Source: Candidatus Latescibacterota bacterium
GTDB lineage: Bacteria; Latescibacterota; UBA2968; SICM01
Length of the DNA stretch: 64,000 nucleotides
Direction: 5' to 3'
NCBI GenBank assembly: GCA_965217865.1
Contig: CBDCJO010000002.1
Span: 4,576,001-4,640,000, forward strand
Position 1 is the first letter of the stretch, and the number at the start of each line of letters is the position of its first letter. Below the pieces are notes generated by a model. It did not search any database. It saw only the letters and a program-made list of their open reading frames with translations, and had not been told where the DNA came from. Shown one piece after another: positions 3,256-37,595 of this stretch. Position numbers and translations under genes: made by a program.

Positions 3256-4047
3256 CTATCCTCCTTGCACAACCGTTTTTCTTATCGCTTTCGACCAGAC
3301 GAATCGCTCGATAAGAACCATTCCCGCAATCCACGCAAGCTGCAGAAGGCATAGAGATGGCAGATCCTCCACGGGGACTTTTCCGAGGTAAACGGCTGCG
3401 GGCAAGAAATAAAGAAACTGATACGGAAGCCATTGGGCTATGGTATTGATGTAGGCCGGAAAGAACCAGAGCGGGACGATTCGCCCCGCAAAGATCGTAC
3501 TGAAGATTGTATTCAGGGAGTTGGGATGTGCAGCGGATATAACCCAGAACACTGTCGTCCCAAGCGTGAACTGAATGTAGTAATTCAAAACGACGGCTCC
3601 CAAGGTCATGAACACGAACCCGATACCGTGAGCGGTGCTGGCAGGGGATTTCATTCCGAACAGGAATATGCTCAAAATCAAAATAGGTGTCAGGCCCGTA
3701 AGGATCTCTCCAATCGATTTGCCTATGTTCTCCGCAAACTTAGCTGATTTATACGATACCGGACGGATCAGTTTCATGCCGATATCCCCGTATCGCACGT
3801 CCCTTTCTATGGCATAGATGAAGCCTGCCCGTGTGAACGCATCGACGATGCGCACGACCAGCACATAGGTGATCATTTCGGGCAGATTGATCCCGGCCAC
3901 ATCTCCCTTCCCGGCATAGAGTGCTTTCCAGATCGAAATCTGAATCAGGATCAGAAAGAACCCGCTCAGGAAGGCGAATAACCAGTTCGCGCGGTAGGCC
4001 ATGGACTGTTGGAGCTGGCGTTTTGTCAGCTCAACGAAGTAACGCAT
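3256..4047 (-). CDS. ABC-2 family transporter permease (partner subunit)
   Basis: MAYRANW, GDIGMKLIRP, PLWFFP, C-terminal VVQGG typical of the first DUF990 permease. Confidence 0.88.
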   Translation of the reverse strand: MRYFVELTKRQLQQSMAYRANWLFAFLSGFFLILIQISIWKALYAGKGDVAGINLPEMITYVLVVRIVDAFTRAGFIYAIERDVRYGDIGMKLIRPVSYKSAKFAENIGKSIGEILTGLTPILILSIFLFGMKSPASTAHGIGFVFMTLGAVVLNYYIQFTLGTTVFWVISAAHPNSLNTIFSTIFAGRIVPLWFFPAYINTIAQWLPYQFLYFLPAAVYLGKVPVEDLPSLCLLQLAWIAGMVLIERFVWSKAIRKTVVQGG

Positions 4048-4065
4048 TTCTGCTTTTTCCTTAGA

Positions 4066-5124
4066 TCAACGGCTGCTTTTGAACGTTCCGGGCATCCACG
4101 CGGACTCCTGCTCGACAAACTCCTGATCGCTCCCACGCGAGATGCCCGTCTTTTCATAGATATTCCGAACGATCTCTTCAACGCTGGTTTCCCGAAAGGT
4201 CAGGTCCCGGATCTGATGTGTCCCCACGATTTTCTGAATGACCCCGACGATCGAGACCTGATTGCGGTTGAATTCGATCCATTTTATCGATCCCTCTTCT
4301 TTAGTCACCTGCGATCCTTCCGGGGGGCTGAATTGATCCGGTTCTGACTCGAATTCTACTGTCAGCGTGACTTTCCCTCCAAAACGGTTCTTGATATCCT
4401 CCAGATCACCGTCCCAGATGATCCTTCCCCGATCGATCATGAGAAGCCGTCTGCACACCTGTTCGACATCGTTCATGTCGTGTGTCGTGAGGATGATCGT
4501 CACGCGCAAGTCTTTGTTCACCGACCGTAGGAACCGTCGGATTCGCTCCTTGGCGACGACATCCAATCCGATAGTCGGCTCGTCGAGGTAAACGATGTCC
4601 GGACCGTGGAGAAAGGCCCCTGCCAGTTCACACCGCATCTTCTGGCCGAGACTGAGCTGGCGCACGGGCCGATCCATGAACGACTCCATTTCGAGGAGTT
4701 CGACGAACATATCCAGGTTCTTCTTAAAGAGATCCTCCGGCACCCGGTAGAGATGCCGCGCGAGATGGAAAGATTCTATCGCGGGGATGTCCCACATCAG
4801 CTGCGTGCGCTGACCGAACACCACGCCCATCCGCCTGGCATTTTCCACCCGTTCTTTCCATGGAATCCTGCCTCTGACCGTTACCGTTCCCGAGGTCGGG
4901 ACCAGGATGCCGGTGAGGACTTTCAGGGTGGTCGATTTGCCTGCGCCGTTCGGACCCACATATCCGATCAGTTCCCCCTCCTCGATCGTAAAATCGACCC
5001 CATCCAGGGCCTTGACGATCGAACGCTGCCGATCGAAAAGGTCCCGAAGGGCACCGGTCAACCCCCTGCGATGTTTATACACCTCGTAATTCTTGACCAG
5101 GTCCTTCACTTCAATTAAGGCCAT
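4066..5124 (-). CDS. ABC transporter ATP-binding protein
   Basis: Walker A GPNGAGKST, signature LSLGQKMR, Walker B YLDEPT, H-loop TTH. Confidence 0.95.
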   Translation of the reverse strand: MALIEVKDLVKNYEVYKHRRGLTGALRDLFDRQRSIVKALDGVDFTIEEGELIGYVGPNGAGKSTTLKVLTGILVPTSGTVTVRGRIPWKERVENARRMGVVFGQRTQLMWDIPAIESFHLARHLYRVPEDLFKKNLDMFVELLEMESFMDRPVRQLSLGQKMRCELAGAFLHGPDIVYLDEPTIGLDVVAKERIRRFLRSVNKDLRVTIILTTHDMNDVEQVCRRLLMIDRGRIIWDGDLEDIKNRFGGKVTLTVEFESEPDQFSPPEGSQVTKEEGSIKWIEFNRNQVSIVGVIQKIVGTHQIRDLTFRETSVEEIVRNIYEKTGISRGSDQEFVEQESAWMPGTFKSSR

Positions 5125-5199
5125 CTGTTTCTCCGTGGTTTTTCGCGGCGCAGGAAAGATTGGCTTACCGGCCGGGCAAGATAAAAATCCGGTTTATCC

Positions 5200-6123
5200 T
5201 TAGGCGGGACGCGTTCGCGAAGTTCCGAATACTTCTTCCAGCTTCACCCGCACTTCATCGAGCAGACCCGCATCGGGCGGGGGATAGGGGGGGCCCATCC
5301 GGTTGTTCGGATAGAGTCCCTGGAGCTGTACGGCGGATTTCAGGACGCAATGCCAGTTTCGATCGATCGCCCACTGCATCCAGGGTTCTTCATAGCGGAA
5401 GACCATCTGCCAGGCCCCGTCGATGTCCCCTTTGATCAGGATTTCGTAAAACTGAAGGGGGATATCGGGCCGAAATGGGGCGATCGGACACAGATAAGCC
5501 GGAGATCCGATCTGGTATCCGAATACGAAGTTACGCATCTGGCCCCCGGAGATCACACCGAATTGCTGCTCTCGGGTCGCCCTTATCAGGTCGTAATAGT
5601 CCTTGAAGGCGTCTCCATCGTTCTTCATCCCGACGATGTTTTGACGCTCTGCCAGCCGAGAAACGACCTCCGGGTGGAACGGGGGTTCCCGGGTGCTCCA
5701 GAGCAACAGGGGAATATCGCTGCCACCTTCGATCTGATCAAAGTATCTCTCCATCATCTCCCGGGTCCGGGGAAATCCGGTGTGGATCTGGACCTTGACG
5801 GCATCGGCCCCGACGGCGTCTGCGTGCTTCAGAAAATCCCTGGCTTTAGCGGGTTTCCAGAAGGCGGTGGAGGCGATAAAGAGAGAGCGGCCCGCGTTTG
5901 CTTCAGCGACCGAAGCGGTCACGTCCCAGAGCTCTTCATCACTCATGCAGTAAAATTCACTGCTTCCGTAAGTCAGGAGGAGGACAGGCACCTTCTCGAC
6001 ACATAACCAGTCGACATAATTCCGAACTGCAGAATGGTTTATGGTTCCGTCGTCGTTGAAACAGATGTTTAGGGGGACCACAGGTCCCTTCATGCGGGAA
6101 AGGACGTTTTCAGATCTGGTCAT
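5200..6123 (-). CDS. Dihydrodipicolinate synthase (DapA)-family aldolase/lyase
   Basis: F..DGTIN, GSSEF, Schiff-base Lys in VGMKND; start set at MTRSENV (6123) because the longer ORF runs through a heptamer repeat. Confidence 0.85.
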   Translation of the reverse strand: MTRSENVLSRMKGPVVPLNICFNDDGTINHSAVRNYVDWLCVEKVPVLLLTYGSSEFYCMSDEELWDVTASVAEANAGRSLFIASTAFWKPAKARDFLKHADAVGADAVKVQIHTGFPRTREMMERYFDQIEGGSDIPLLLWSTREPPFHPEVVSRLAERQNIVGMKNDGDAFKDYYDLIRATREQQFGVISGGQMRNFVFGYQIGSPAYLCPIAPFRPDIPLQFYEILIKGDIDGAWQMVFRYEEPWMQWAIDRNWHCVLKSAVQLQGLYPNNRMGPPYPPPDAGLLDEVRVKLEEVFGTSRTRPA

Positions 6124-6520
6124 AAAGGGCTCCAAAGGGAAAGGTGAAATCCAGAGGTCAGAGGTCGGGGGAAATTGAAGATCGAAAATTGAAGATTGAA
6201 GATTGAAGATCCTCCTAGTTTTTGGTGGAGAGCGAGGTTCTGTGAGGCGACGCATCAGCGGGCCAACGGTCCGCGATCCGAGCGTCAGGGAGCGTTTTCG
6301 ATCTTTTGTGCTGAACACTAGATGAATCAGGATACGGGACAGGGATTAGGGGATGTGAAATTATCGCGGCCCTTCAGGCCGCAAGATGCTATTGCTTTCC
6401 AAGGACCCAGGGCGGTGCCCTGGGTTGAGGGACATCGCGCCGTTGGCGCTGGAGAAGAATCGATCAAATTTAGCGGTTTGCGGGCCCCCGGTCCAAGCCT
6501 TTTGTGATAAAAAAAGTTGC

Positions 6521-6549
6521 TTGACTTTAGGGGGTCAAGATCATATCTT
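6521..6549 (+). promoter_or_regulatory. sigma70-type promoter
   Basis: TTGACT-17 bp-TATCTT with an A-tract upstream. Confidence 0.6.
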
Positions 6550-6555
6550 GTCCGG

Positions 6556-6750
6556 ATAAATTTATCGAATATCGTGGGCAAAGGCAGGGGAAAAGGTGAA
6601 ACCGATTCGTCTCGAGTCCAGCAATCCCGGAGTGCGGCACGGAGGGTTGGATGCTGCTAAGGAGGCCCCCAACAGGGGATCGCCCGGCGGATTTTGTGTT
6701 TTTCCATGGATTTCGGAGCCCGCCATTGAGTCCACGGCGGGTTTTTTTTT
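6556..6750 (+). ncRNA. Candidate orphan small RNA (~195 nt), family unassigned
   Basis: Bounded by the promoter and a strong intrinsic terminator; no RBS-led ORF; 5' and 3' ends can pair. Confidence 0.4.
6718..6750 (+). terminator. Rho-independent terminator
   Basis: GCCCGCC-attgagtccac-GGCGGGT stem followed by a T-run (T9 at 6742-6750). Confidence 0.8.
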
Positions 6751-7506: not shown

Positions 7507-7646
7507 GATCGACTCCTTTGAAGATTGTAGACTGAAGATTAATGATTTAGGTAATTAGCAGATTAAGGCTTGACTTTCAGTCCCTTTTTGGTTATATTAA
7601 GTGTAATGAAAACAATTAACTTAACCAAAAAAAGGGAGATAGGAAA

Positions 7647-8531
7647 ATGAACTTGTTGACGGCGATTGAAAAGTTCCCGACGCAGGAATCATGCATTGAG
7701 CATCTTGAGCGGGTAAGGTTCAGAGATGATCCGTTTTGTCCGCTGTGTGGGGCGGTTGGTGAGTGTGCCAGAAAGAAAGAGGGAACTCTTGTGGGGCGTT
7801 GGAACTGCCATGCCTGCGGGTCCAGCTTCAACGTTCTTTCGGGGACAATGTTTCAGGGTACGCATCTTCCGCTCCAGAAGTGGTTTATGGCAATCGCCTT
7901 GATCATCAACGCCAAGAAGAGCCTGTCCAGCTGCCAGCTTGCCCGGGACCTGAACCTTAACCAACGATCTGCATGGTATGTGCAACAGCGGATTCGCGCC
8001 GAGATGGCGACGAGGCAGGGGAAGATATTATTGCGAGGGATCGTCGAGGCAGACGAGACCTACGTTGGAGGCAAGCCACGGAAACGGAACAAGCGGTCAG
8101 GCGGTGGCAGCGCTCCCAGGGGGCGCGGAACCCGCAAGACTCCGGTTATAGGAGCCGTTGAGCGTGGAGGGAAGGTAGTTGCCCGTGTGGCGGACGATCT
8201 GTCTGGTAAGGGGGTTCTGGCCTTCGTCAAGCAGGCGATAGACCCTTCGGAAGAATCTGTGCTTATTACGGACGAATTCAGTTCCTACAGCGCAGTAAGG
8301 CAAATCATGAGTCATGCGGTGATCCACCACGCCAGGCATTACGCGGACGGTGATATACACACCAACACGATCGAAGGCGTGTGGTCCCTGCTCAAGAGAG
8401 CGTGGTACGGTTCACATCATCACTACACGAAGCGTTATACGCCGCTCTACGTGGCCGAAGCCTGCTACAAATACAACAACCGAAAAAACAAGCGGACGTT
8501 TGATACGTTCATGAAAGGGTGCTTCGCATAG
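7647..8531 (+). CDS. IS1595-family transposase A (intact)
   Basis: N-terminal Zn finger CPLC..CHAC, HTH, catalytic VEADET / LITDE / TNTIEGVW (ISXO2-like). Confidence 0.95.
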   Translation: MNLLTAIEKFPTQESCIEHLERVRFRDDPFCPLCGAVGECARKKEGTLVGRWNCHACGSSFNVLSGTMFQGTHLPLQKWFMAIALIINAKKSLSSCQLARDLNLNQRSAWYVQQRIRAEMATRQGKILLRGIVEADETYVGGKPRKRNKRSGGGSAPRGRGTRKTPVIGAVERGGKVVARVADDLSGKGVLAFVKQAIDPSEESVLITDEFSSYSAVRQIMSHAVIHHARHYADGDIHTNTIEGVWSLLKRAWYGSHHHYTKRYTPLYVAEACYKYNNRKNKRTFDTFMKGCFA

Positions 8532-8616
8532 CTTAAATTTGGAGGTTAAGTCAATGACCAATATTGAAATAATCAACAAGACGAAGACACAGGACCCGTC
8601 CATCAAAAATATTGGG

Positions 8617-8814
8617 TCAAACGTCTTCGTCACAATCGTTGATCGTCACGACAAGAGCCTGAGTTCCAATTATGATCGAGATCTCCGATCCGTCGGAAAT
8701 CAGGTTCATTGAAACAACACCATATTCCCCACAATAGATCGAGATTCGGCATGGCTTCGAGGACTCGCTTTTCAATCTTAAAACTGATCCTGGTTCGGCA
8801 TTGAAAGATGCCAT
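8617..8814 (-). CDS. Small hypothetical cargo protein of element A (65 aa)
   Basis: ATG with GGAG RBS directly downstream of the HExxH gene, same strand. Confidence 0.4.
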   Translation of the reverse strand: MASFNAEPGSVLRLKSESSKPCRISIYCGEYGVVSMNLISDGSEISIIIGTQALVVTINDCDEDV

Positions 8815-10053
8815 TTGGGTCTCCAGTAGACGCCCCCGCGTACATTTTTACCTCATTCCATCTGTGCCTGTTAATGCCGGTTTACTTGCTGGGTAGTATC
8901 CGAAGCGCCCGGCAATCTCCGCCACGTATTTTTGCCACATGGACGGCGTCCTTAGATACCAGCCATGAAGGTACGTCCCAAAATCCTGATTCTGGTTCCA
9001 TGAAACCGGTCCTTGAATATTCAGATAGCGGACAGCGTTCCACGCCTCCGGGTTGGTCTCGAAAATATCAATCAGATTGTGGGCGATCATATCGTTGGAT
9101 CTTCGGAGGTAAGGATTTTCCGATAATCCGGGAAGTCGCGCCTCAAACCACGCCCTGAATTGTGCCGCATCCATTCTCTGGCCGGGGATATTTTGTTCTG
9201 CATAGGGCAGGAGACGATTCATCATAGAATGAAGATACCATGTCGTGTTTTGGCTTGGAACATATACGTTGAGAACAGCGCCTGCCAAGATCTTCTCATG
9301 TATCTTCCTCAAAACGTACAATGAGGCCATACTTGATAGAGATTCATCAAACCATTTATTCGGTCCGCTTCGCACCTGATAATAGTTACTCATCAAGTGA
9401 CCATATTCATGGGCGAACTGAAAGACGTTTTGCTCGACATTAGTATTTTCCGTGTCTAACCAGATCACGTAAGAACCGGTTGGGGTGCGTGAGTATAGAA
9501 CTTTCGGACCCTCCGGTTCGACATGCCGAACGACTATATCAGAATCGAGAGCATAAATCAGTGGTTCTGACAAGGTTTTCTGAACACTCTTACAGACCGC
9601 TTGAACAAGTTCAACTGGTTGGCGCCATCCTCCAGGTTCGACGGTGATCGATGGCAATAACTTGGGACGAGTACGAGTGGGAGGAGATCCATCTCTATAA
9701 ACCGTTTCAATGATTGGCGCTGAAGGAGTAACAAGAACCGTTGTGTCTCTTACTACAAAGGTATCCAGAACCACATTATCGACGAACGTTGTATCTCTTA
9801 CCAGAAGGGTATCCAGAACCACACGATCGACGATCGTTGTATCTCTTACTACAACGGTATCAACTTCAACGGATTCAGGGTCGAAGATCTCCCCGCCCGA
9901 CTTTCCGAAATTGGAAGAAAATATGAAGAAGTCTTCAAGGTTTACCTCGCCGTTACCGTCCAGATCGCCGATCAGCCTTTCCTGAGCCGTTGCGGCCGCA
10001 AGCCATGTAACTACAAAAAAAACAGGGATTGCGTAGTTCGGGGCTTATAGGGC

Positions 10054-11670
10054 TTAAGCATTTAAGCGAAGCTCGGGCTGTTTCATGCCTCTTCCCACCA
10101 CGGCCGGAGTATCGAATTTCTTTCCCTCAAGAATTTCGTGGACGTTCAGCATCTGAAGGCGGGGATAGGCTGCGCTACCGATTTTCACGTCTCCCGCTCT
10201 GGCCATGAGGCGGTGAAAGTTGCGGGTTTTTGTCTCCCCCAAGGGATCCATGATAATCAACCCGGCCATCATTGCAAGGTCGTTGTCCAGGACCCCGCAT
10301 AAGGCGCGGAGGTCCCGAATCGATACGTTTTGTCCGCCCTTTACCTCAATGGCCATGTTATGCAAATCTCGTTTTCCTGGGCAATCGAAATACAATCGCC
10401 CATCGATCCCGCCGTCCGCCGTCCGCTTCGTGGTTACAAAACCATCTACTTCCTCAGTGGCCCATTTTTGAAAATGATAAGTGTCCCGTTCCCACAGGTC
10501 TTTCGCCCCTTCGGTGTTACGGGGCACACCTTCGATTTTGTAGTCTTGACCTTCGACCAGGCCCAGCTTGTCACGCAGCCTAAAAGCTGCTACGCGCTTG
10601 ATGGCATGTATGGCTATGTCAATACCTATCCACCGGCGTTTGAGTCTGTGGGCCGCTTCCAGCGTTGTAGCGCACCCACAAAAGGGATCGAATACGACAT
10701 CTCCATCAATGGAGCTGGCCTTGATGATGCGTTCAAGGAGTGCGAGCGGTTTCTGTGTGGCGTAGCCCATCCGTTCGGAAGACGTATTGGGAATTCTCCG
10801 TATATCGGTCCATATGTTTTGCAGTTGCTTGCCAGGTGCTTCATCCATATAGACCTTTAAGCCGTCCATGCGTGGCGTTCCGTCTCGCTTGGTCTGTATA
10901 CGTCCTTCTTCCCACCAAGATTCAAGTTGTTCGCGTCGATAACCCCAACAGCGCGTATTGCCGGGCCTTGTTCCTCGCCATTCAAATCTATCACGACCGG
11001 AAGTCGGCGCAGTCAAGTCGTCAAGTCTATATTTTCGTCCAGTGCTGTCAACATGTCGAAATCGGCCCAATTGCGCCTCTCCATAAGGCTGATATTGTGG
11101 ATTCCAGGTTGTAGTCCGGGAGTTTGAGTAGTACAATATGATGTCCGCAACATTACCGTATTTCCTGGCGTTGTTATGGCTTTCGGTCCTTTGCCAAGTG
11201 ATTTCATTTCTGAAATTCTGATGTCTGAAAATACCGTCCATCATGACTTTGATGTAGTGGGATGCGGTCGGATCACAATGCAGGTAAATCGAACCTGTTG
11301 GCTTCAGGATGCTTTTCATGTGGAGTAGGCGTTCAACCATATACGAGAGGTAGGCCAGCAAGCGGGGTTGTGTTTCTCTCAAGGCTTTCATCCACAGGTG
11401 CCAGAAAGCAGCTATGCTGTCATCAACACCGGATTCCCGCATTAATACAGGCATGGTTCTGATCGCTCGTTCACGCTCTTCATCCAGCGTCCATAGATCA
11501 CAGAAGGCATCAATCTGGTCCGGCAATGGTCGGCCCGTCCCATCCTTATAGATCGCATTGTAAGCCCGGTTGGAGTTGAATGGGGGATCGAGATAAATCA
11601 GGTCTACGCTGTCTTTCTTCATATATTCCTGCATGACCGTCAGGCAGTCGCCGTAATAGAGTTTGTTCAC
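10054..11670 (-). CDS. Beta-class N6A/N4C DNA methyltransferase fused to a C-terminal Mrr-like PD-(D/E)xK domain
   Basis: DPPF motif IV before DPFCGCAT motif I; C-terminal DGGIDG...IEVKGG; GTG start overlaps the TGA of transposase B (GTGA). Confidence 0.88.
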   Translation of the reverse strand: MNKLYYGDCLTVMQEYMKKDSVDLIYLDPPFNSNRAYNAIYKDGTGRPLPDQIDAFCDLWTLDEERERAIRTMPVLMRESGVDDSIAAFWHLWMKALRETQPRLLAYLSYMVERLLHMKSILKPTGSIYLHCDPTASHYIKVMMDGIFRHQNFRNEITWQRTESHNNARKYGNVADIILYYSNSRTTTWNPQYQPYGEAQLGRFRHVDSTGRKYRLDDLTAPTSGRDRFEWRGTRPGNTRCWGYRREQLESWWEEGRIQTKRDGTPRMDGLKVYMDEAPGKQLQNIWTDIRRIPNTSSERMGYATQKPLALLERIIKASSIDGDVVFDPFCGCATTLEAAHRLKRRWIGIDIAIHAIKRVAAFRLRDKLGLVEGQDYKIEGVPRNTEGAKDLWERDTYHFQKWATEEVDGFVTTKRTADGGIDGRLYFDCPGKRDLHNMAIEVKGGQNVSIRDLRALCGVLDNDLAMMAGLIIMDPLGETKTRNFHRLMARAGDVKIGSAAYPRLQMLNVHEILEGKKFDTPAVVGRGMKQPELRLNA

Positions 11671-11952
11671 GCAAAGCACCCCCGAATGAAGGCGCCGAAC
11701 GTGTTGTCGTTCTTTCTGTTGTTGTACTTGTAGCAGGTTTCGGCAACAAAGAGGGGCATGAACTTCCTGGTATAGTGGTGATGCGAACCATACCAGGCAC
11801 GCTTGAGCAAAGACCAGACTCCTTCAATCGTGTTGGTGTGGATGGAGCCATTGACATAGGTTTCCGAGTGCTTGACAACCGAATGCCTGAATGTCTTTTG
11901 AATTGGTGATTATGCACTTGACTAAGGTTGGCAGGTTTGGTAAATTGATGGG

Positions 11953-12471
11953 ATGGAATGGAAAAGTGTTTTTCGGAACCCGCTTTGCGCCTTGTCGGTG
12001 CTGGCTATGTTCGCAGGTTTACTGGTCGATTTTCAGGGGGCGGCGTCTAAAATGGCACGAGCTATTCCCCTAATAGAAGCCTTACTGCCATTGATAGCCC
12101 TTGGGGGGGTTACGTTCTTTGGGTTGTGGTCAATATGGGCGGTTCCATCATTCTTCTGGGCGCGTCGCCCTGCTGCCAAGTTTGGAACAAATTACTATTT
12201 CATAGTGAAATGCCGCAATGCCGTTGAAGGTCGCATTATCGGCATATTGGACAACAATTCTCACTTGTATGCCGGAATGACGGAACTTTCCAATACGTTG
12301 AGTCGATTCCGAATCCAATGTCCCAATATAAATCCTGACGATAAATATTACGCAGTAGTATGGTTCAACTTTCTTGCACAATTAGCGCCATTGGCACGGC
12401 ACGATGATTTGTACAATGCACGCAAACTTGGATTACGGGGAAATGAATCACATGACCGAACCCAACTTTAA
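11953..12471 (+). CDS. Hypothetical membrane protein (2 N-terminal hydrophobic helices), cargo of C
   Basis: 172-aa ORF with lower GC; ATG lies 6 nt after a -10 box (probably leaderless). Confidence 0.7.
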   Translation: MEWKSVFRNPLCALSVLAMFAGLLVDFQGAASKMARAIPLIEALLPLIALGGVTFFGLWSIWAVPSFFWARRPAAKFGTNYYFIVKCRNAVEGRIIGILDNNSHLYAGMTELSNTLSRFRIQCPNINPDDKYYAVVWFNFLAQLAPLARHDDLYNARKLGLRGNESHDRTQL

Positions 12472-13621
12472 GAACCGCACGATATGGACGGGCGACAACC
12501 TGGACATCATGCGTGGCATGAACTCCGAAAGCGTTGATCTGATCTACCTTGATCCGCCCTTCAACTCCAATCGCACCTACTCCGCGCCCGTAGGAAGCAA
12601 GGCGGCGGGGGCTGCCTTCAAGGATTCATGGTCGTTATCCGATTTGGATGTTGCCTGGATGGGGATCATTGCCGACAAACATCCGGGCATGTATAAGGTT
12701 CTGGAAGCGTCTGGCGTCGCTCACGGAAAAGGGATGCAATCCTATCTTTGCATGATGGGTGTCCGAATCCTTGAAATGCATCGTCTCTTGAAGCCTGCGG
12801 GGAGCATCTATCTTCATTGCGATCCCACGGCCAGTCACTACCTCAAGCTGCTTATGGACGCGGTATTCGGGCAGGAAAATTTTCGGAGTGAGATCACGTG
12901 GCGCCGTACCAATGCGAAAGGATTGGCGTTCAAGAGCTACCCGAACAACGCTGACTTTCTGTTGTACTACAGCAAAGCCGAATCTTTTACGTGGAATCGT
13001 CCATTTCGCTCCCATGATCCGACCTATTTAAAAAAATTTTACCGACATGTTGATCCAAAAACCGGACGGCGCTATCTACTCGACAATCTGGCGAACCCGA
13101 ACTCGGATCGCCCTAATTTGACATACGAGTTTCTCGGAGTAACCAGAGTTTGGCGTTGGACACGAAAACGAATGCAGAAAGCCTACGAACAGGGTCTCGT
13201 TGTGCAGCAACGTCCGGGTGCAGTTCCAAGACTCAAAAGGTATTTGGATGAGATGAAAGGCGCCCCGGTTGATACGATTTGGGACGATGTAAAGCCAGTA
13301 CAGGCTCAATCCGGGGAGCGCATCGGCTATCCCACCCAGAAGCCCCTTGTCCTCCTGAACAGGATCATCCAGGCAAGCAGCGACATCAACGATATGGTCA
13401 TGGACCCATTCTGCGGATGCGCAACGACCTGCGTGTCGGCGGACAAGCTGAACCGCCAATGGGTCGGAATAGACATCTCGCATAAAGCTTCCGAGCTTGT
13501 CAACATGAGACTTCAATCGGAATTGGGAGACCTTTATCATTCCCGCCTGGTTGCGGTCCGAACCGACGTTGTATCTATTCTGAGATAACAAGAGAAAAGC
13601 AGATAAAGGTCCAAGCAAGAT

Positions 13622-14653
13622 TCAGGCAGCCTTGTGGATGGTCTGGGATGTTCTTTGCCGATTGATTTCTATGCGGCGCTGCCGAGCCTCCTCCTTTCGA
13701 CCTTGTCGGTGGTGAAGAATCTTTTGATGCTGGCCTTTATGCCTCTGAAGAGGCGTGACATACTGTATTGCCCCGTGATAGCGTTCGGCGTTGTAGCTGT
13801 GAATGAAGGAATCAATCAGGCCTTCCAGTTGATGGAATGTGAAGATGTCCTGGAAGCGCAGCCAGTCGTATTTGAATGTCCGGAAAAAGGCTTCGATCCA
13901 GGCGTTGTCCGTGGGTGTTTGATATCGGGCAAACAGCTGCGAGATGCCCAGGTCCTTGAAGAATTGGGCCATCGATTTGGCCTTCATCTGAGATCCGTGA
14001 TCTGAGAGGGCTGTCAAGCTTATGGGCCCAGTGTCCAGGTCCAGCAGTCCTTCGTTGGCAAGGGCTTGATCCCAGGCCTGTTTGACCTGCTCCACGGTCG
14101 CGTTGAAGGAGAGCTTCCATCCTACGATCTTCCTGGAATACACGTCGAGAATGGCGGTAAAATACAGGAACAAACCGAAAAATGGGATGTAGGTCAGGTC
14201 CCAGCTCCAGACCTGATTAGGACCTTCAGGTTTGACCTGGGGCTTGCTCTGCTTGACCGGCGTCCTCACCTGTTTCCTGCGTGCCAGACGTTCTTTCCTG
14301 GCCTGTCGGTAGAAGCTGGAGGCCGAGGCCTGCACTACCCCCTTCTCTGAGGCTACCACCGCCAGCTGATGGGGAGGCAGATCGGCATAGGTCTCATCCC
14401 TTAAGAGGGCCGGGATTTGCTCTTTCTCCTCCCTCAGCAATCCGTGTGGGGCCTCATCAGGGGCGGGCCCGGGCTTCCCATCCAAAAGCGGGTCCGACAC
14501 CCCATCCAGCTTCTCTTCTCGATCTCGCCGGCTCCAGGCACAATACCGCTGGAGGGGAAGCTGTAGGATCTCGCAAGAACGGGTGAGTTTCACCCCTTTC
14601 TCCTTGGCCCGATGGACCATTAAGAGGATCTCGCGTTTGACCTCAGCTTGCAC
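13622..14653 (-). CDS. IS3 transposase OrfB (rve/DDE)
   Basis: WSWDLT, SDHGSQ, DNAWIEAFF, YNAERYH; probably made as OrfAB by -1 frameshift at A8G (14693-14701). Confidence 0.92.
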   Translation of the reverse strand: MQAEVKREILLMVHRAKEKGVKLTRSCEILQLPLQRYCAWSRRDREEKLDGVSDPLLDGKPGPAPDEAPHGLLREEKEQIPALLRDETYADLPPHQLAVVASEKGVVQASASSFYRQARKERLARRKQVRTPVKQSKPQVKPEGPNQVWSWDLTYIPFFGLFLYFTAILDVYSRKIVGWKLSFNATVEQVKQAWDQALANEGLLDLDTGPISLTALSDHGSQMKAKSMAQFFKDLGISQLFARYQTPTDNAWIEAFFRTFKYDWLRFQDIFTFHQLEGLIDSFIHSYNAERYHGAIQYVTPLQRHKGQHQKILHHRQGRKEEARQRRIEINRQRTSQTIHKAA

Positions 14654-14676
14654 CCGGTGGCCCTTGATCGGGCCTG

Positions 14677-15012
14677 TCAGATCCCATTCACACTTTTTTT
14701 TAGCAGGGAAAGTTCCACAGATTGCTCAATGATCGTTTGCTCCAGGCGTGCCCGCTCTTTGCGCAGCTGCTCCACCTCCTCAGCCGATACCATCGGCTTG
14801 CGGCTCCGGCGACCCTTGAACTCCTTGAGGGCCCCGGACTTGACCGACTCACGAATACGCTTTAGATCCGAGGAATGAATGCCCCATTTCCGCAGCACCT
14901 GTGCAATGGGAACATCTCCCCGGCTGGCTTCAAGGAAAATCTCATACTTCTGTTCCGGGGACAAGCTCCTGCGCTTCTTGACCGGGTCACTGTTTGAGGA
15001 CAGTTGCTCCAT
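14677..15012 (-). CDS. IS3 transposase OrfA (HTH)
   Basis: SPEQKYEI..IAQVLRKWGI HTH plus coiled coil; RBS AGGAGG. Confidence 0.88.
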   Translation of the reverse strand: MEQLSSNSDPVKKRRSLSPEQKYEIFLEASRGDVPIAQVLRKWGIHSSDLKRIRESVKSGALKEFKGRRSRKPMVSAEEVEQLRKERARLEQTIIEQSVELSLLKKSVNGI

Positions 15013-15399
15013 CTTTACTCCTCCTGTGAGGTCAGGGATATCCCAAAATATGTATCCCTTCTCAACCCTACAGGCAACCAGGATCTTGCTTCGACCTTGC
15101 CCCCGTTTTTTCGGGCGATCTCAGACAAAAGATAACGTTCCAAAGCGCACTGACTTGGGCGAACTTCCCGATTACCGAACGTACAAGCATATCCTGTTCG
15201 GCAAGCAGGAAGGAGTATGCGGTGGTTGTCGTTCAACGTTCCAGTTCAGGAACTTCACGGTGGATCATATCGTACCCAAAATCAAAGGAGGAACCAACCA
15301 CCAAGACAACCTGCAACTGCTCTGCGGAGCCTGTAACAGCTTGAAAGGTGATAGGCCGCAAGCCTATCTGGTGGCGAGATTGAAAGGCTTGGCCACACC

Positions 15400-16293
15400 T
15401 TAGGCCGCCGTCAGGTTCCGGTACGTGATGTTGTCCGTGTTCATGATCCGGCGAAGCGTATCGTGGAACAGGCGAGGATTGTTACGATTGTTGAACCTCC
15501 ATTCAAGCTCTTCAAGATAACGGTCCATATGCTTAGTGCTCATCTTGTGAAACGTCCCTACGATGGAACGCTTGAACAGGGACCAGACGCCCTCGACGCT
15601 GTTGGTGTGCACGTCGCCGACAACCCATTGCTCTTCGGAATGCCTGACGGTTTCATGACGGGTGTCATGGTCCTCGACTCCGAGATAGGATTTCAACTCG
15701 TCCGTGTAAATGGCTTCCGCTTCGTCCTTGACGGTTCGCCGGATAAAGTCATGAAGCGTCTGGCGTCTGACGTTGGAGATGCGCTCGATTCGGATGTTTC
15801 CGCCCCTCTGGACGGCCCCTGCGATCCAGGTTTTGTTTCCCTTGTAGGCGCGCCCCTTGTTCTTTGTCCTGCCTCCTACAAGCGTTTCGTCCACTTCCAC
15901 GACGCCGAGCAGCGTCGGCCCCTCAAACGGATCGTTGCCCATAGCCTTCCGGATTCTGTGGCAGAGATACCAGGCCGACCGGTAGGCGACGCCGAGCGTT
16001 CGTTGAAGTTGAAGCGCGGAGATGCCTTTTTTGGATTCGCACATCAGGTAGATCGCCAGGAACCATTTGCGAAGCGGCAGATGAGAATCATGCATGATGG
16101 TCCCGGACATAACGCTGAACTGGTACTCGCATGACCGGCATTCCCACAGGTTGTAATCGTGAAGCTCGTTTACCCCCGTGTCTCCGCAGCGCGTGCAACA
16201 TACGCCGTTCGGCCAGCGGATGCGCTCAAGGGCTTCCCTGCACTTCCCGTCATTGCCGAACCGGTCAATCAAGGAGATAATATTGACGTCCAT
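15400..16293 (-). CDS. IS1595-family transposase C (intact)
   Basis: CTRC..CRSC Zn finger, VEVDET / IYTDE / TNSVEGVW, RYLEELEWRFN; RBS AGGAG. Confidence 0.95.
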   Translation of the reverse strand: MDVNIISLIDRFGNDGKCREALERIRWPNGVCCTRCGDTGVNELHDYNLWECRSCEYQFSVMSGTIMHDSHLPLRKWFLAIYLMCESKKGISALQLQRTLGVAYRSAWYLCHRIRKAMGNDPFEGPTLLGVVEVDETLVGGRTKNKGRAYKGNKTWIAGAVQRGGNIRIERISNVRRQTLHDFIRRTVKDEAEAIYTDELKSYLGVEDHDTRHETVRHSEEQWVVGDVHTNSVEGVWSLFKRSIVGTFHKMSTKHMDRYLEELEWRFNNRNNPRLFHDTLRRIMNTDNITYRNLTAA

Positions 16294-16444
16294 GGATCAC
16301 ACTCCTAAGAAGAAGAAGAAATTGCCTAAGGATTTCGCCGAGCGGACCGACCACGAGCTCATGGAGCTGCTTTTCGGAAAACAGGTCATGAAAGCCGTTG
16401 ACAAGATCGTCGATGACCGGTCACAAGACTTTGACAGTAAGTAA
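16292..16444 (+). CDS. Possible small basic protein (50 aa) divergent from transposase C
   Basis: MDHTPKKKKKLPKDFAERTDHELMELLFGK...; its ATG overlaps the transposase start codon (CATG). Confidence 0.35.
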   Translation: MDHTPKKKKKLPKDFAERTDHELMELLFGKQVMKAVDKIVDDRSQDFDSK

Positions 16445-17782
16445 GTAACGTCGTCCATAGACTTAATATAACAATATTCTTATCCTTAGTCAAGTGCATA
16501 ATAACCTTTGAATTGCGTTGTAGGATTTGAATTCATCTGTCACCAGCAAGGAGCCGTCGGGCTTGACGGTCTTTTTGATGAACGCCATGACGCCTTTGCC
16601 CGAAAGGTCGTCTGTGACCCGGGCAACAACGTTTCCACCACGTTCAACGGCGCCTATAACCGGCGTTTTCTTTGTTCCTCTGCCTCTCGGGCGGGGGGGG
16701 GGTAGATGATCTCTTTCTGCCACCGACGTAGGTCTCGTCCGCTTCAACAATACCTTGCAGCAACAGAAAACCCTCTTTGCGTGCCATTTCCGCCCGTATG
16801 CGTTGTTGCATATACCAGGCCGACTTGTGATTCATTCCAAGGTCACGGCCCAACTGGTGGCTCGACAGGCTCTTCTTGGCGTGCATGACAAGTCCGATGG
16901 CAAAGAACCAGTCCTGCAACTGAAGCTTGGTGTTCTGGAAAATCGTGCCGGAAAGCACATTAAAACTGGCCTTGCATGAATGGCAGTTCCAACGTCCGAT
17001 TCTGTTGCCATCGGCTTTGCGGGCCACGTGGCCAACAACACCGCAGAGCGGGCAGTAAGGCTCATCACCAAAACGGACCTTTTCGAGATGCCTGATGCAC
17101 GATTCTTGATTGGGGAACCGCGCGAAGATTTGATGAATGGTCATTGCAACAACTCCTTTGTGGGGCTTGATGTTTGGTTGCCGAATGCTTATAATATAAG
17201 CAATCCAACCCCGATTGTCAAGCCCCAATCTACGCAATCCCAAAAAACAGATACTATAATTAAAACTTTCCGCATTTATCCCACCTCCTTGATGAGTAGT
17301 TTTGGCACCTGCCAAAAGAAGGTGCCGGGTAGAACCACCAATCACGCAGAGAGATGATGCGGGAAGGGTCCTGCTTATTCGCCGAACCGGGTTGCAAGGC
17401 CGGCTCTGGTGTTGTTGGCTATTATATTCGGCAGGCTACCCGACATGCGGGACTGCCTGATTGGTGGTACGTGGAATATAACCAACTCAGGACCGAAAGT
17501 CAAGCCTTAATCTGCTAATTGCGATGATTTATAGTCGAACCACCAGTTTTCCTGATGGCTCTTATTTATCTCGATTATCCTAAATATATAAATAAAGCCC
17601 CAGGAGAAGAATCAAGGGTTCTTGCCGGGAATCCTCCTGCCGGATTTGGATTCGATTCGTGACTTGACATCAACACCATGATTGGGTATCGTAGTGAATA
17701 TATTGTGTCTTCCATACGAAGCACCACATGTCCTTGTATTGGGTCGGTTGTGTAGTATGAAATCCCCTGGAAGAGGTCCCGC

Positions 17783-36820: not shown

Positions 36821-37595
36821 GGTGATTATGCACTTGACTAAGGAACAATCCTCGCCTGTTCCACGATACGCTCCGCAGAATCATGAACACGGACAATATC
36901 ACGTACCGGGAATTGGTAGCAGCTTGACTACCAGCACCATATCGGTATGGATCATCCATTTCTGGTTAGACCTCCACGCCTTGTAATCTTTGCCATGGAT
37001 ACGGAGAGTGCCAATTTCCGTGAAAGCTGAAAATTGATTTAGACCTTGGTCGTCGGGGTCAACGTTGATAGGATCGGCCAGATATGCTGGTATGGCGAAC
37101 GCTACGTATGCGTCCTCGTGCTTTGGAATGTGCGCTCTGTCTGATCTTGACGAAATGCTGGTACTCGGGTTCATAAAGTCAGAAGCACCGAATACAGCGT
37201 CTTCTACTCTTAATGCCACATACCAAATTGGCTCAGGTGAATGGCCAATGGATACAGCGTTGTATGCTTCCTCCAGCTGCTCGGTTGATAATTCGCCCTT
37301 CTCCGGCTTAGATATCGGAGAAGGGCGGATGACAGACCATAACCAAGGTCCAAGGAGGACAATCGGCGCTGAAGCGAGCAACGCAACACTTACTCCTAGT
37401 TCCAGATTCAACATGGGCAACCACTCGTTTTTCCACACTTTGATATCATCGCTAACTCCAGCCAATCCAATGGCCCCAGAGCCGACGGCATACAATGCCC
37501 GAAAAACGAAGAAGAACTTAGCCATCTACCCATGATAACCTCTCTTTCTTGGCCCGTCAATATGAAATAGTAACTTAGTCAAGTGCATAATTACC
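36821..37595. mobile_element. Non-autonomous IS1595 derivative (MIC-like, 775 bp) sharing TIRs with element C
   Basis: TIRs at 36821-36843 and 37574-37595; TSD TTTCGATA at 36813-36820 and 37596-37603; last 27 transposase codons at 36844-36927. Confidence 0.93.
36899..37525 (-). CDS. Hypothetical membrane-anchored cargo protein (208 aa)
   Basis: Two N-terminal hydrophobic segments; TTGACG-17-TATCAT promoter ending 6 nt before the ATG. Confidence 0.7.
   Translation of the reverse strand: MAKFFFVFRALYAVGSGAIGLAGVSDDIKVWKNEWLPMLNLELGVSVALLASAPIVLLGPWLWSVIRPSPISKPEKGELSTEQLEEAYNAVSIGHSPEPIWYVALRVEDAVFGASDFMNPSTSISSRSDRAHIPKHEDAYVAFAIPAYLADPINVDPDDQGLNQFSAFTEIGTLRIHGKDYKAWRSNQKWMIHTDMVLVVKLLPIPGT

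Follow-up and report, generated by a model that had tools for sequence, protein, structure and literature searches.

Nested IS1595 elements in a Latescibacterota genome carry putative single-chain methyltransferase–nuclease enzymes with a variable central segment

We analysed a 64,000-nucleotide stretch of DNA (the window) from Candidatus Latescibacterota bacterium (assembly GCA_965217865.1, 96% complete with 9.3% contamination; contig CBDCJO010000002.1, positions 4,576,001 to 4,640,000, forward strand), which contains four mobile elements inserted one into another, each with its own target duplication. From the outside in, these are the IS1595-family insertion sequences (ISs) A, B and C and an IS3-family element; B is inserted in the cargo gene of A, C in the transposase gene of B, and the IS3-family element in the cargo gene of C. 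The cargo genes of B and C each encode a predicted beta-class methyltransferase (methylase) followed by a nuclease-like domain, and comparison with their relatives suggests that the part replaced most often is a central segment and not the nuclease. The main features, in window coordinates, are as follows.

7550..17523, + strand: outer IS1595 element A, with inverted ends and the 8-bp duplication ATGATTTA
10025..17241, − strand: IS1595 element B, arms 10025-10046 and 17220-17241, duplication AAAAAACA, a single copy in the genome
10054..11670, − strand: intact gene for a beta-class methyltransferase with a PD-(D/E)xK (Mrr-like) domain, 538 amino acids (aa), from Pfam, model and fold matches
11667..11904, − strand: 3' part of transposase B, ending in a GTGA stop/start overlap, with an in-frame stop just upstream, within the end of C
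11905..16506, − strand: IS1595 element C, with inverted ends and duplication TTTGAATT, inserted in transposase B
12452..13588, + strand: methyltransferase part of the C fusion (N6_N4_Mtase E=7e-39, profile positions 1-219 of 221)
13570..15134, − strand: IS3-family element inserted in the methyltransferase–HNH linker (NF033516 above cut-off; duplication ACGT)
15140..15403, + strand: detached HNH domain (HNH_5 E=2.4e-14; CxxC...DH...N...CxxCN preserved)
15400..16293, − strand: intact transposase of C, 297 aa (NF033547 E=7e-61), convergent with the cargo
16507..17147, − strand: 5' part of the B transposase gene, frameshifted in a run of G near 16693

Terminal inverted repeats and an 8-bp duplication are present for A, B and C alike, the transposases of A and C score above the NF033547 cut-off, and a passenger gene lies within the ends, as in IS1595 transporters. 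The sequence-only reading of this DNA had placed the fusion-bearing elements at 10025..16506; the right-hand coordinate is the end of C, but B extends to 17241. Without C, B measures 2607 bp by subtraction, and its 22-nt arms are 91% complementary. Its cargo gives a full Pfam N6_N4_Mtase match (E=1.8e-40), and its tail matches Mrr_cat at only E=0.03 on its own, a profile that is matched at E<=0.05 in 73 of 82 close homologues. In the structure model (predicted local distance difference test, pLDDT, 85.3), the methylase half takes the folds of M.BceJIV and CcrM (Z 27; M.BceJIV Z 27.2), and residues 383-520 align with AspBHI (Z 9.0, root-mean-square deviation (rmsd) 3.3, 119 aligned) and LlaBIII (Z 8.4, rmsd 2.7, 112 aligned), as well as with FokI and MspJI (7.2). 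A sequence search of the PDB with this tail returned nothing under E=0.79. The earlier identification of the B cargo as an intact beta-class methylase with an Mrr-like nuclease domain is thus borne out by the open reading frame (ORF), the Pfam matches and the modelled fold.

The same reading had described this gene as translationally coupled to its transposase. The GTGA overlap is indeed present at 11667-11670, where the cargo ORF (11670-10054) begins at a GTG overlapping the transposase stop. However, transposase B is split by C and frameshifted, and an in-frame stop lies in the end of C. In this locus B is therefore no longer a complete element: its cargo gene remains intact, but GTGA coupling does not operate any more. 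The 5' part of this transposase scores 73.8 with NF033547, against a cut-off of 75, and matches PF12762 and PF12760. A sequencing error is an unlikely source of the frameshift because runs X1 and X3 agree with the window at the G run near 16693; single contigs of low depth in X6 and X7 lack one base of the run. A promoter-like site of B at 17221 now lies 4.6 kb further from the cargo. The B fusion gene is thus intact but severed from its own promoter and transposase coupling.

Element C measures 3033 bp without the IS3-family element, again by subtraction. Its methylase ORF covers the entire catalytic domain and the presumptive recognition segment, followed by a few IS3-derived residues and a stop; removal of the IS3-family element and one duplication restores an open frame across the cargo gene. 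This agrees with the earlier view of the C cargo as a methylase–HNH fusion interrupted by IS3, and the insertion has likely truncated the gene to a methylase-only product. A second copy of C, IS3 included, lies elsewhere in the same genome (G000:C2:312143-316744); it is 99.98% identical and flanked by a different duplication, and C therefore moved after the IS3 landing. The HNH-type fold was judged on an intact paralogue of the same genome, carried by element E (407 aa; model pLDDT 86.1), standing in for C. Residues 4-306 of this model match M.BceJIV (Z 26.5), and residues 330-407 match the Cas9 HNH domain (Z 8.2, rmsd 2.7, 76 aligned), McrA (6.3) and TagI (5.7). The nuclease folds proposed for the C-terminal domains therefore hold in the models for both types, PD-(D/E)xK in B and HNH in paralogue E. 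Foldseek listed only methylase folds for these two models, and PADLOC returned MTase_II/III models and none for a fused system. The methylase scaffolds of B and C are only 47% identical, which makes the two fusions distant relatives and not the products of a recent swap.

The sequence-only reading had proposed that such elements spread through modular exchange of the nuclease. A tree of the methylase scaffold, built from 280 distinct proteins with the central segment and the nuclease excluded (FastTree, Shimodaira–Hasegawa-like support), gives a different picture: nuclease type follows the scaffold, and the mobile module appears to be the central segment. After 23 rows with no recognised tail were left out of the count of nuclease changes, the 116 HNH and 141 PD-(D/E)xK rows part with one change (support 98), compared with about 85 in shuffles, in a sample picked for likeness to full-length queries and hence biased against chimeras. 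With this single change among 257 rows, ongoing nuclease swapping is unsupported, and we set it aside. On this tree, nuclease replacement is rare and the HNH and PD-(D/E)xK versions appear as two old sub-families. The exception is locus L129, in which a scaffold of the HNH clade bears a T5orf172/MUG113 tail, a third nuclease type that we take to be GIY-YIG-like, inside perfect IS1595 ends (3933-6723).

The central segment, about 80-140 aa in length, behaves quite differently. Scaffold and segment identities are 89% and 15% between the proteins of C and a further element, F, and 88% and 23% between those of elements D and E. Two Bacteroidota genomes contain tandem methylase–HNH arrays, one of three genes (L103, 1-3700) and one of four (L118, 3400-9350), with scaffolds 95-99% identical and segments only 24-36% identical in 8 of 9 pairs. 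Among HNH pairs with scaffolds at least 75% identical, 320 of 452 have segments less than 30% alike. Clustering by segment sorts the 116 HNH rows into 51 clusters, both nuclease types occur within 14 clusters, and one of the segments closest to that of C (64%) sits in a PD-(D/E)xK protein. At the DNA level, identity breaks off at the segment borders. These comparisons suggest that the repeatedly swapped part of the family is likely the DNA-recognition segment and not the cutting domain. Exchange of this kind has precedents: in Type III mod genes of H. pylori, target recognition domains are described as moving between conserved motifs (PMC3467074), and shared-specificity systems are reported to diversify by such recognition-module exchange in the accessible portions of PMC4081073, PMC4752239 and PMC3467074.

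The genome of the window contains 48 PF12762 matches and several related elements. Elements D (2642 bp) and E (about 2.9 kb), in two copies each, carry intact methylase–HNH genes, located at G000:C2:654332-653076 for D and at 4039399-4040622 for E; the ORFs of at least 110 aa in D are the transposase and the fusion alone, plus one shadow ORF inside the transposase. Element F, likewise found twice, is interrupted by a TAG stop that lies two codons away from the IS3 site of C. There are also several fragments, and many copies in the genome are decayed. C, D and E each occupy two sites with differing duplications, that is, each moves as a unit, and B is single-copy with a broken transposase. Transposases 89-95% identical to that of A bear different cargo, and the transposase of C, only 36% identical to that of A, carries the scaffold closest to that of F, from which we infer that cargo moves among IS1595 backbones.

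How often these fusions travel in IS1595 was assessed by scanning genome contigs with the HNH alignment and taking the best 79 of 567 relatives, from 4 of 64 collection parts. An IS1595 transposase lies within 1 kb at 13 of the 79 genome loci (in Pseudomonadota, Chloroflexota, Acidobacteriota, Poribacteria and Rhodothermota), and 8 of these 13 have inverted ends and an 8-bp duplication (one mismatch or none). The corresponding control figures, obtained over a wider search span, are 3 of 82 for IS-free loci and 5 of 300 for random windows. The other 66 loci have no IS1595 match; among the 68 loci with full flanks, IS1595 lies within 2.5 kb in 13 and beyond that in 1. A further set of relatives comprised 33 fetched regions, of which 27 were scored and 6 are IS-linked. 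The PD-(D/E)xK type is IS-linked at 5 of 47 intact metagenome loci, two of which show ends and duplication; flanks of 2.5 kb to either side are available for only 11 of the 47. Thus, a family of minimal IS1595 elements of 2.6-3 kb with one methyltransferase–nuclease gene is real, and the predicted enrichment inside IS1595 boundaries was observed, but most copies of the gene lie outside any such element. Obligate linkage is ruled out by the 66 IS-free loci together with the complete genomes G004, G030 and G014, which contain intact fusions and no match to PF12762, the IS1595 domain. IS linkage is scattered over the scaffold tree (15 changes for 20 rows vs 18.7 in shuffles), and the gene appears often to outlast its IS.

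Hidden, transposase-free IS ends around the IS-free genes were considered and set aside, at 3/82 against a near-random 5/300; L050 alone is convincing, with a methylase–HNH gene in IS1595-like ends and an 8-bp duplication at 3905-5556 and no transposase. An IS1-like transposase adjoins the fusion gene at two further loci. In viral contigs the PD-(D/E)xK type is dominant and seldom IS-linked (1/65 and 2/41 in overlapping sets); its frequency there is seen in L305-L353, where 41 of the 46 scored are intact and most lack IS1595. On plasmids, the HNH fusion gave 20 matches with no record covering 80% of the protein; 8 of the 13 matches to the B protein cover 80%, and no annotated IS1595 adjoins the gene in the 2 regions inspected. 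Many of the named hosts are, we presume, sponge-symbiont lineages. More broadly, 8000 of 8000 scored candidates passed per query (best-scoring sets, hence at least 8000), many of which may share the methylase alone.

Elements that resemble parts of this arrangement are known. Passenger-carrying IS1595 elements have been reported (PMC5704250, 10.1101/2021.05.26.445724 and PMC11891212, as far as their accessible text goes), and the transporters tISCpe8 and MTnSag1 share with the present elements a DDE transposase, inverted ends of about 25 bp, an 8-bp duplication, passengers and A+T-rich targets (accessible text of PMC5704250 and 10.1101/2021.05.26.445724). They differ in that the cargo here is a methylase–nuclease fusion and not a resistance gene, and here, unlike in known IS1595 transporters, the cargo varies among near-identical transposases of one genome and three elements are nested. 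Restriction–modification (RM) genes within 26-65-bp inverted repeats and an 8-bp duplication were described in 2010 (PMC2853133), one Neisseria unit combining a Type IIG homologue with a COG3677 transposase remnant. In the portion of that paper available, these are Type II/IIG genes of the usual build, mostly without an intact transposase, and no beta-class fusion was met. RM genes in IS-like ends and passenger IS1595 elements are thus already known, and the fusion cargo with its apparently swapped recognition segment would be the new part. We found a beta-class methylase–nuclease fusion in IS1595 undescribed in the literature searched, including the accessible portions of PMC12707154, PMC11754643, PMC6471742, PMC4752239 and PMC8989522; the family may still be catalogued in REBASE or ISfinder.

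Among RM systems, the closest comparison is with Type IIC/IIG enzymes (MmeI, BpuSI and Eco57I), which use one chain for both activities, with one likely specificity module and broad divergence in specificity (available portion of PMC4081073). As in Type IIC, methylase and nuclease domains are predicted here in a single chain. However, the usual Type IIG build is an N-terminal PD-(D/E)xK domain, a gamma-class methylase and a C-terminal specificity module, whereas the 400-540-aa proteins studied here have a beta-class fold and motif order, with the methylase first, the recognition segment inside and a small nuclease last, in some cases of HNH or GIY-YIG-like type. BtgZI, as partially documented, has the same domain order, but its methylase is alpha-class. 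Type III Mod proteins (EcoP15I Mod and H. pylori mod) share the beta-class fold (4zcf, Z 23-24), the internal recognition domain and the exchanged central segment (accessible text of PMC3467074); here, the segment is shorter, the nuclease is fused and an adjoining Res helicase-nuclease is absent, none being found inside elements B, C, D and E or among 107 neighbour ORFs of IS-free loci (which include one unrelated-looking methyltransferase, one RE_XamI and three tandem fusions). Type IV enzymes (Mrr, McrA) combine a reader domain with the lack of a methylase; a full, DPPF-bearing methylase is present in 254 of the 257 rows, and no reader family was matched. The RuvC domain and guide RNA of IscB/OMEGA systems were not found either; the HNH part alone matches (E=6.5e-11; 41.9 bits vs a cut-off of 175), and there was no Rfam match in 4 loci.

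From these sequence comparisons and structure models, we consider it reasonably probable that the cargo of B and C is a single-chain RM enzyme with an exchangeable recognition segment, cutting unmethylated DNA beside its site. The methyltransferase half would use the central segment to bind a short site, which it would methylate, with adenine N6 as the most likely target, and this methylation would protect the host at its own sites; the tethered nuclease would cut next to the site on unmethylated incoming DNA. The enzyme would probably act as a dimer, like other beta-class enzymes. New specificities would likely arise when the conserved stretches on either side of the central segment recombine, an exchange that would retarget methylation and cutting together, and the IS would carry the gene between sites and species. 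The presence of both domains in one chain, with no partner methylase or restriction subunit found in the elements, supports the single-chain reading. A fuller proposal, which we advance more tentatively and would not yet call probable, is that these proteins form an RM subtype not described before. In 400-540 aa, its members would join a beta-class methylase bearing a plug-in segment to an HNH, PD-(D/E)xK or GIY-YIG-like nuclease at the C-terminus. IS1595 would have carried them across phyla, segment exchange that may draw on tandem arrays as specificity libraries would re-target them, and linker lesions would reduce them to a methylase-only form. If active, the family would offer a very small one-gene RM design with thousands of natural relatives, in which specificity could be changed by replacing a single 80-140-aa segment; it would let the origin of new specificities be tested directly and would supply new methylases and cutters. 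It would also exemplify an IS delivering RM-like genes between phyla, an idea raised earlier from few cases in the available part of PMC2853133.

Several points weigh against the single-chain RM reading. The recognition role rests on the position of the central segment, which we take to be the target recognition domain site of beta-class enzymes. Most homologues stand alone among housekeeping genes, outside defence islands. The HNH and Mrr-like folds also resemble the modification-dependent McrA (Z 6.3), TagI (5.7), AspBHI (9.0) and MspJI (7.2), and a small HNH domain may be a nickase only. The Type IIC enzymes described in the accessible text of PMC4081073 use gamma- or alpha-class methylases. 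In favour of the reading, the HNH cysteines and D, H, N and N are preserved in 112-116 of 116 rows, and D, D and K of PD-(D/E)xK in 141 of 141 (the third position is S in 86, Q in 49 and E in 6, with E in B), figures inflated by the picking of rows by domain profile. Together with the ratio of nonsynonymous to synonymous change for the HNH domain (0.17-0.36 over the 10 pairings of five copies from this genome), they show selection on the nucleases, as distinct from activity.

Some of these points would suit a site-specific, active methylase joined to a nuclease limited to nicking or to selfish retention, in which cells that lose the gene are killed or unmethylated sister DNA is cut; its part in phage defence would be slight. 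Intact fusions persist in the three complete genomes without an IS1595 domain, IS linkage is scattered on the tree, the neighbours are mostly housekeeping genes, and the HNH domain resembles that of IscB. We nonetheless regard this account as unlikely: rapid turnover of the recognition segment would fit an arms race with incoming DNA, numerous copies in this genome are decayed, the IscB likeness falls far under the family cut-off, and the lack of an Rfam match in 4 loci leaves no known guide RNA. The fold neighbours McrA, TagI, AspBHI and MspJI would also suit a modification-dependent, Type IV-like nuclease that marks its own sites and cuts DNA with foreign marks, as would the QxK signature in 49 of 141 tails, which is found in Mrr (available portion of PMC12707154). 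However, FokI, LlaBIII and Cas9 share these folds, and the modification-dependent enzymes have a separate reader domain in the sources as partially available, whereas here the nuclease directly follows the methylase and there is a single variable segment; this explanation is very improbable.

The sequence-only reading combined diversification by nuclease swapping with an IS3 insertion that would disarm the nuclease while keeping methylation. The IS3-family element does lie in the methylase–HNH linker, with the ORF ending at 13588, and C has since moved again with it. Among 20 loci examined for lesions, 12 have a locatable first lesion, four fragments and four loci without a lesion being left out. 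Five of the 12 first lesions (C, F, L007, L070 and L110) follow the methylase, each of them near residues 315-335; the other seven fall within the methylase. Compared with the 24% of gene length downstream, 5/12 gives p=0.14, and 4/11 gives p=0.26 once L007, which also lacks the methylase start, is removed; in L110 the shift possibly lies in a T run. The narrow 315-335 window gives p=0.0002, a window picked after the data were seen, so the clustering at the linker is a lead rather than a result. With about 48 IS3 copies in the genome (48 left-end and 49 right-end matches), chance suffices for the insertion in C, and intact D and E copies coexist with it. Disarming of the C nuclease by IS3 is possible as an event, with no statistical support for selection. 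L129 would be an instance of a nuclease swap, but the tree shows a single change between HNH and PD-(D/E)xK, and we regard the combined account as improbable. The single-chain RM enzyme with an exchanged recognition segment remains our preferred reading.

The remaining features of the nest and its surroundings are listed below.

7647-8531: transposase of A (NF033547 E=2.2e-53)
8848-10024 and 17242-17290, − strand: cargo gene of A, for a secreted-looking protein of ~400 aa, interrupted by B near the gene start
11918..11946, + strand: inward promoter-like site in the end of C, ahead of the cargo (consensus scan)
11953..12471, + strand: 172-aa ORF with a hydrophobic N-terminus, overlapping the methyltransferase start (ORF list)
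16298..16444, + strand: 48-codon ORF divergent from transposase C, with a 41% identical match adjoining a transposase in L084
16493-16465, 17221-17193 and 17503-17475, − strand: promoter-like sites in element ends (consensus scan)

The cargo protein of A has 48-nt tandem repeats in its gene, a weak Peptidase_M78 match and paralogues elsewhere in the genome. The 172-aa ORF has no match in Pfam, PADLOC or NCBIfam. The consensus scan gave 12 promoter-like sites, compared with 6.4 expected, and the element ends hold four of these. Earlier, uninserted states of the nest receive some support from public contigs: a junction across the entire element A was seen in one contig of run X3 (side 30 letters), and junctions across the IS3-family element occur in contigs of X3, X6 and X7. 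The nearby sequence of these IS3-less alleles differs from the window, and they may stem from other copies or strains. As to expression, only small shares (0.11 and 0.08) are represented in RNA runs X21 and X22, as diverged contigs.

Other IS1595-related cargo occurs in the same genome. A 775-bp transposase-free cassette with C-type ends, encoding one 208-aa ORF (36899-37525, − strand), is present at window positions 36821-37595, at G000:C2:3762427-3763201 and at 869386-870160, each with its own flanking duplication. Further IS1595 cargo (G000:C2:4296392-4298617 in three copies, 3473579 onward and 5105872-5108110) includes Panacea/SocA antitoxin-like genes and an HSDR_N nuclease-like gene. A 1804-bp IS1595 element (G000:C2:3961658-3963461, three copies) retains just the last part of the HNH gene, yet has spread to three sites. 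Finally, the duplications flanking the F copies pair crosswise (G000:C2:3359123, 3584753, 3670489, 3674882), which suggests a chromosomal rearrangement by recombination between both F copies.

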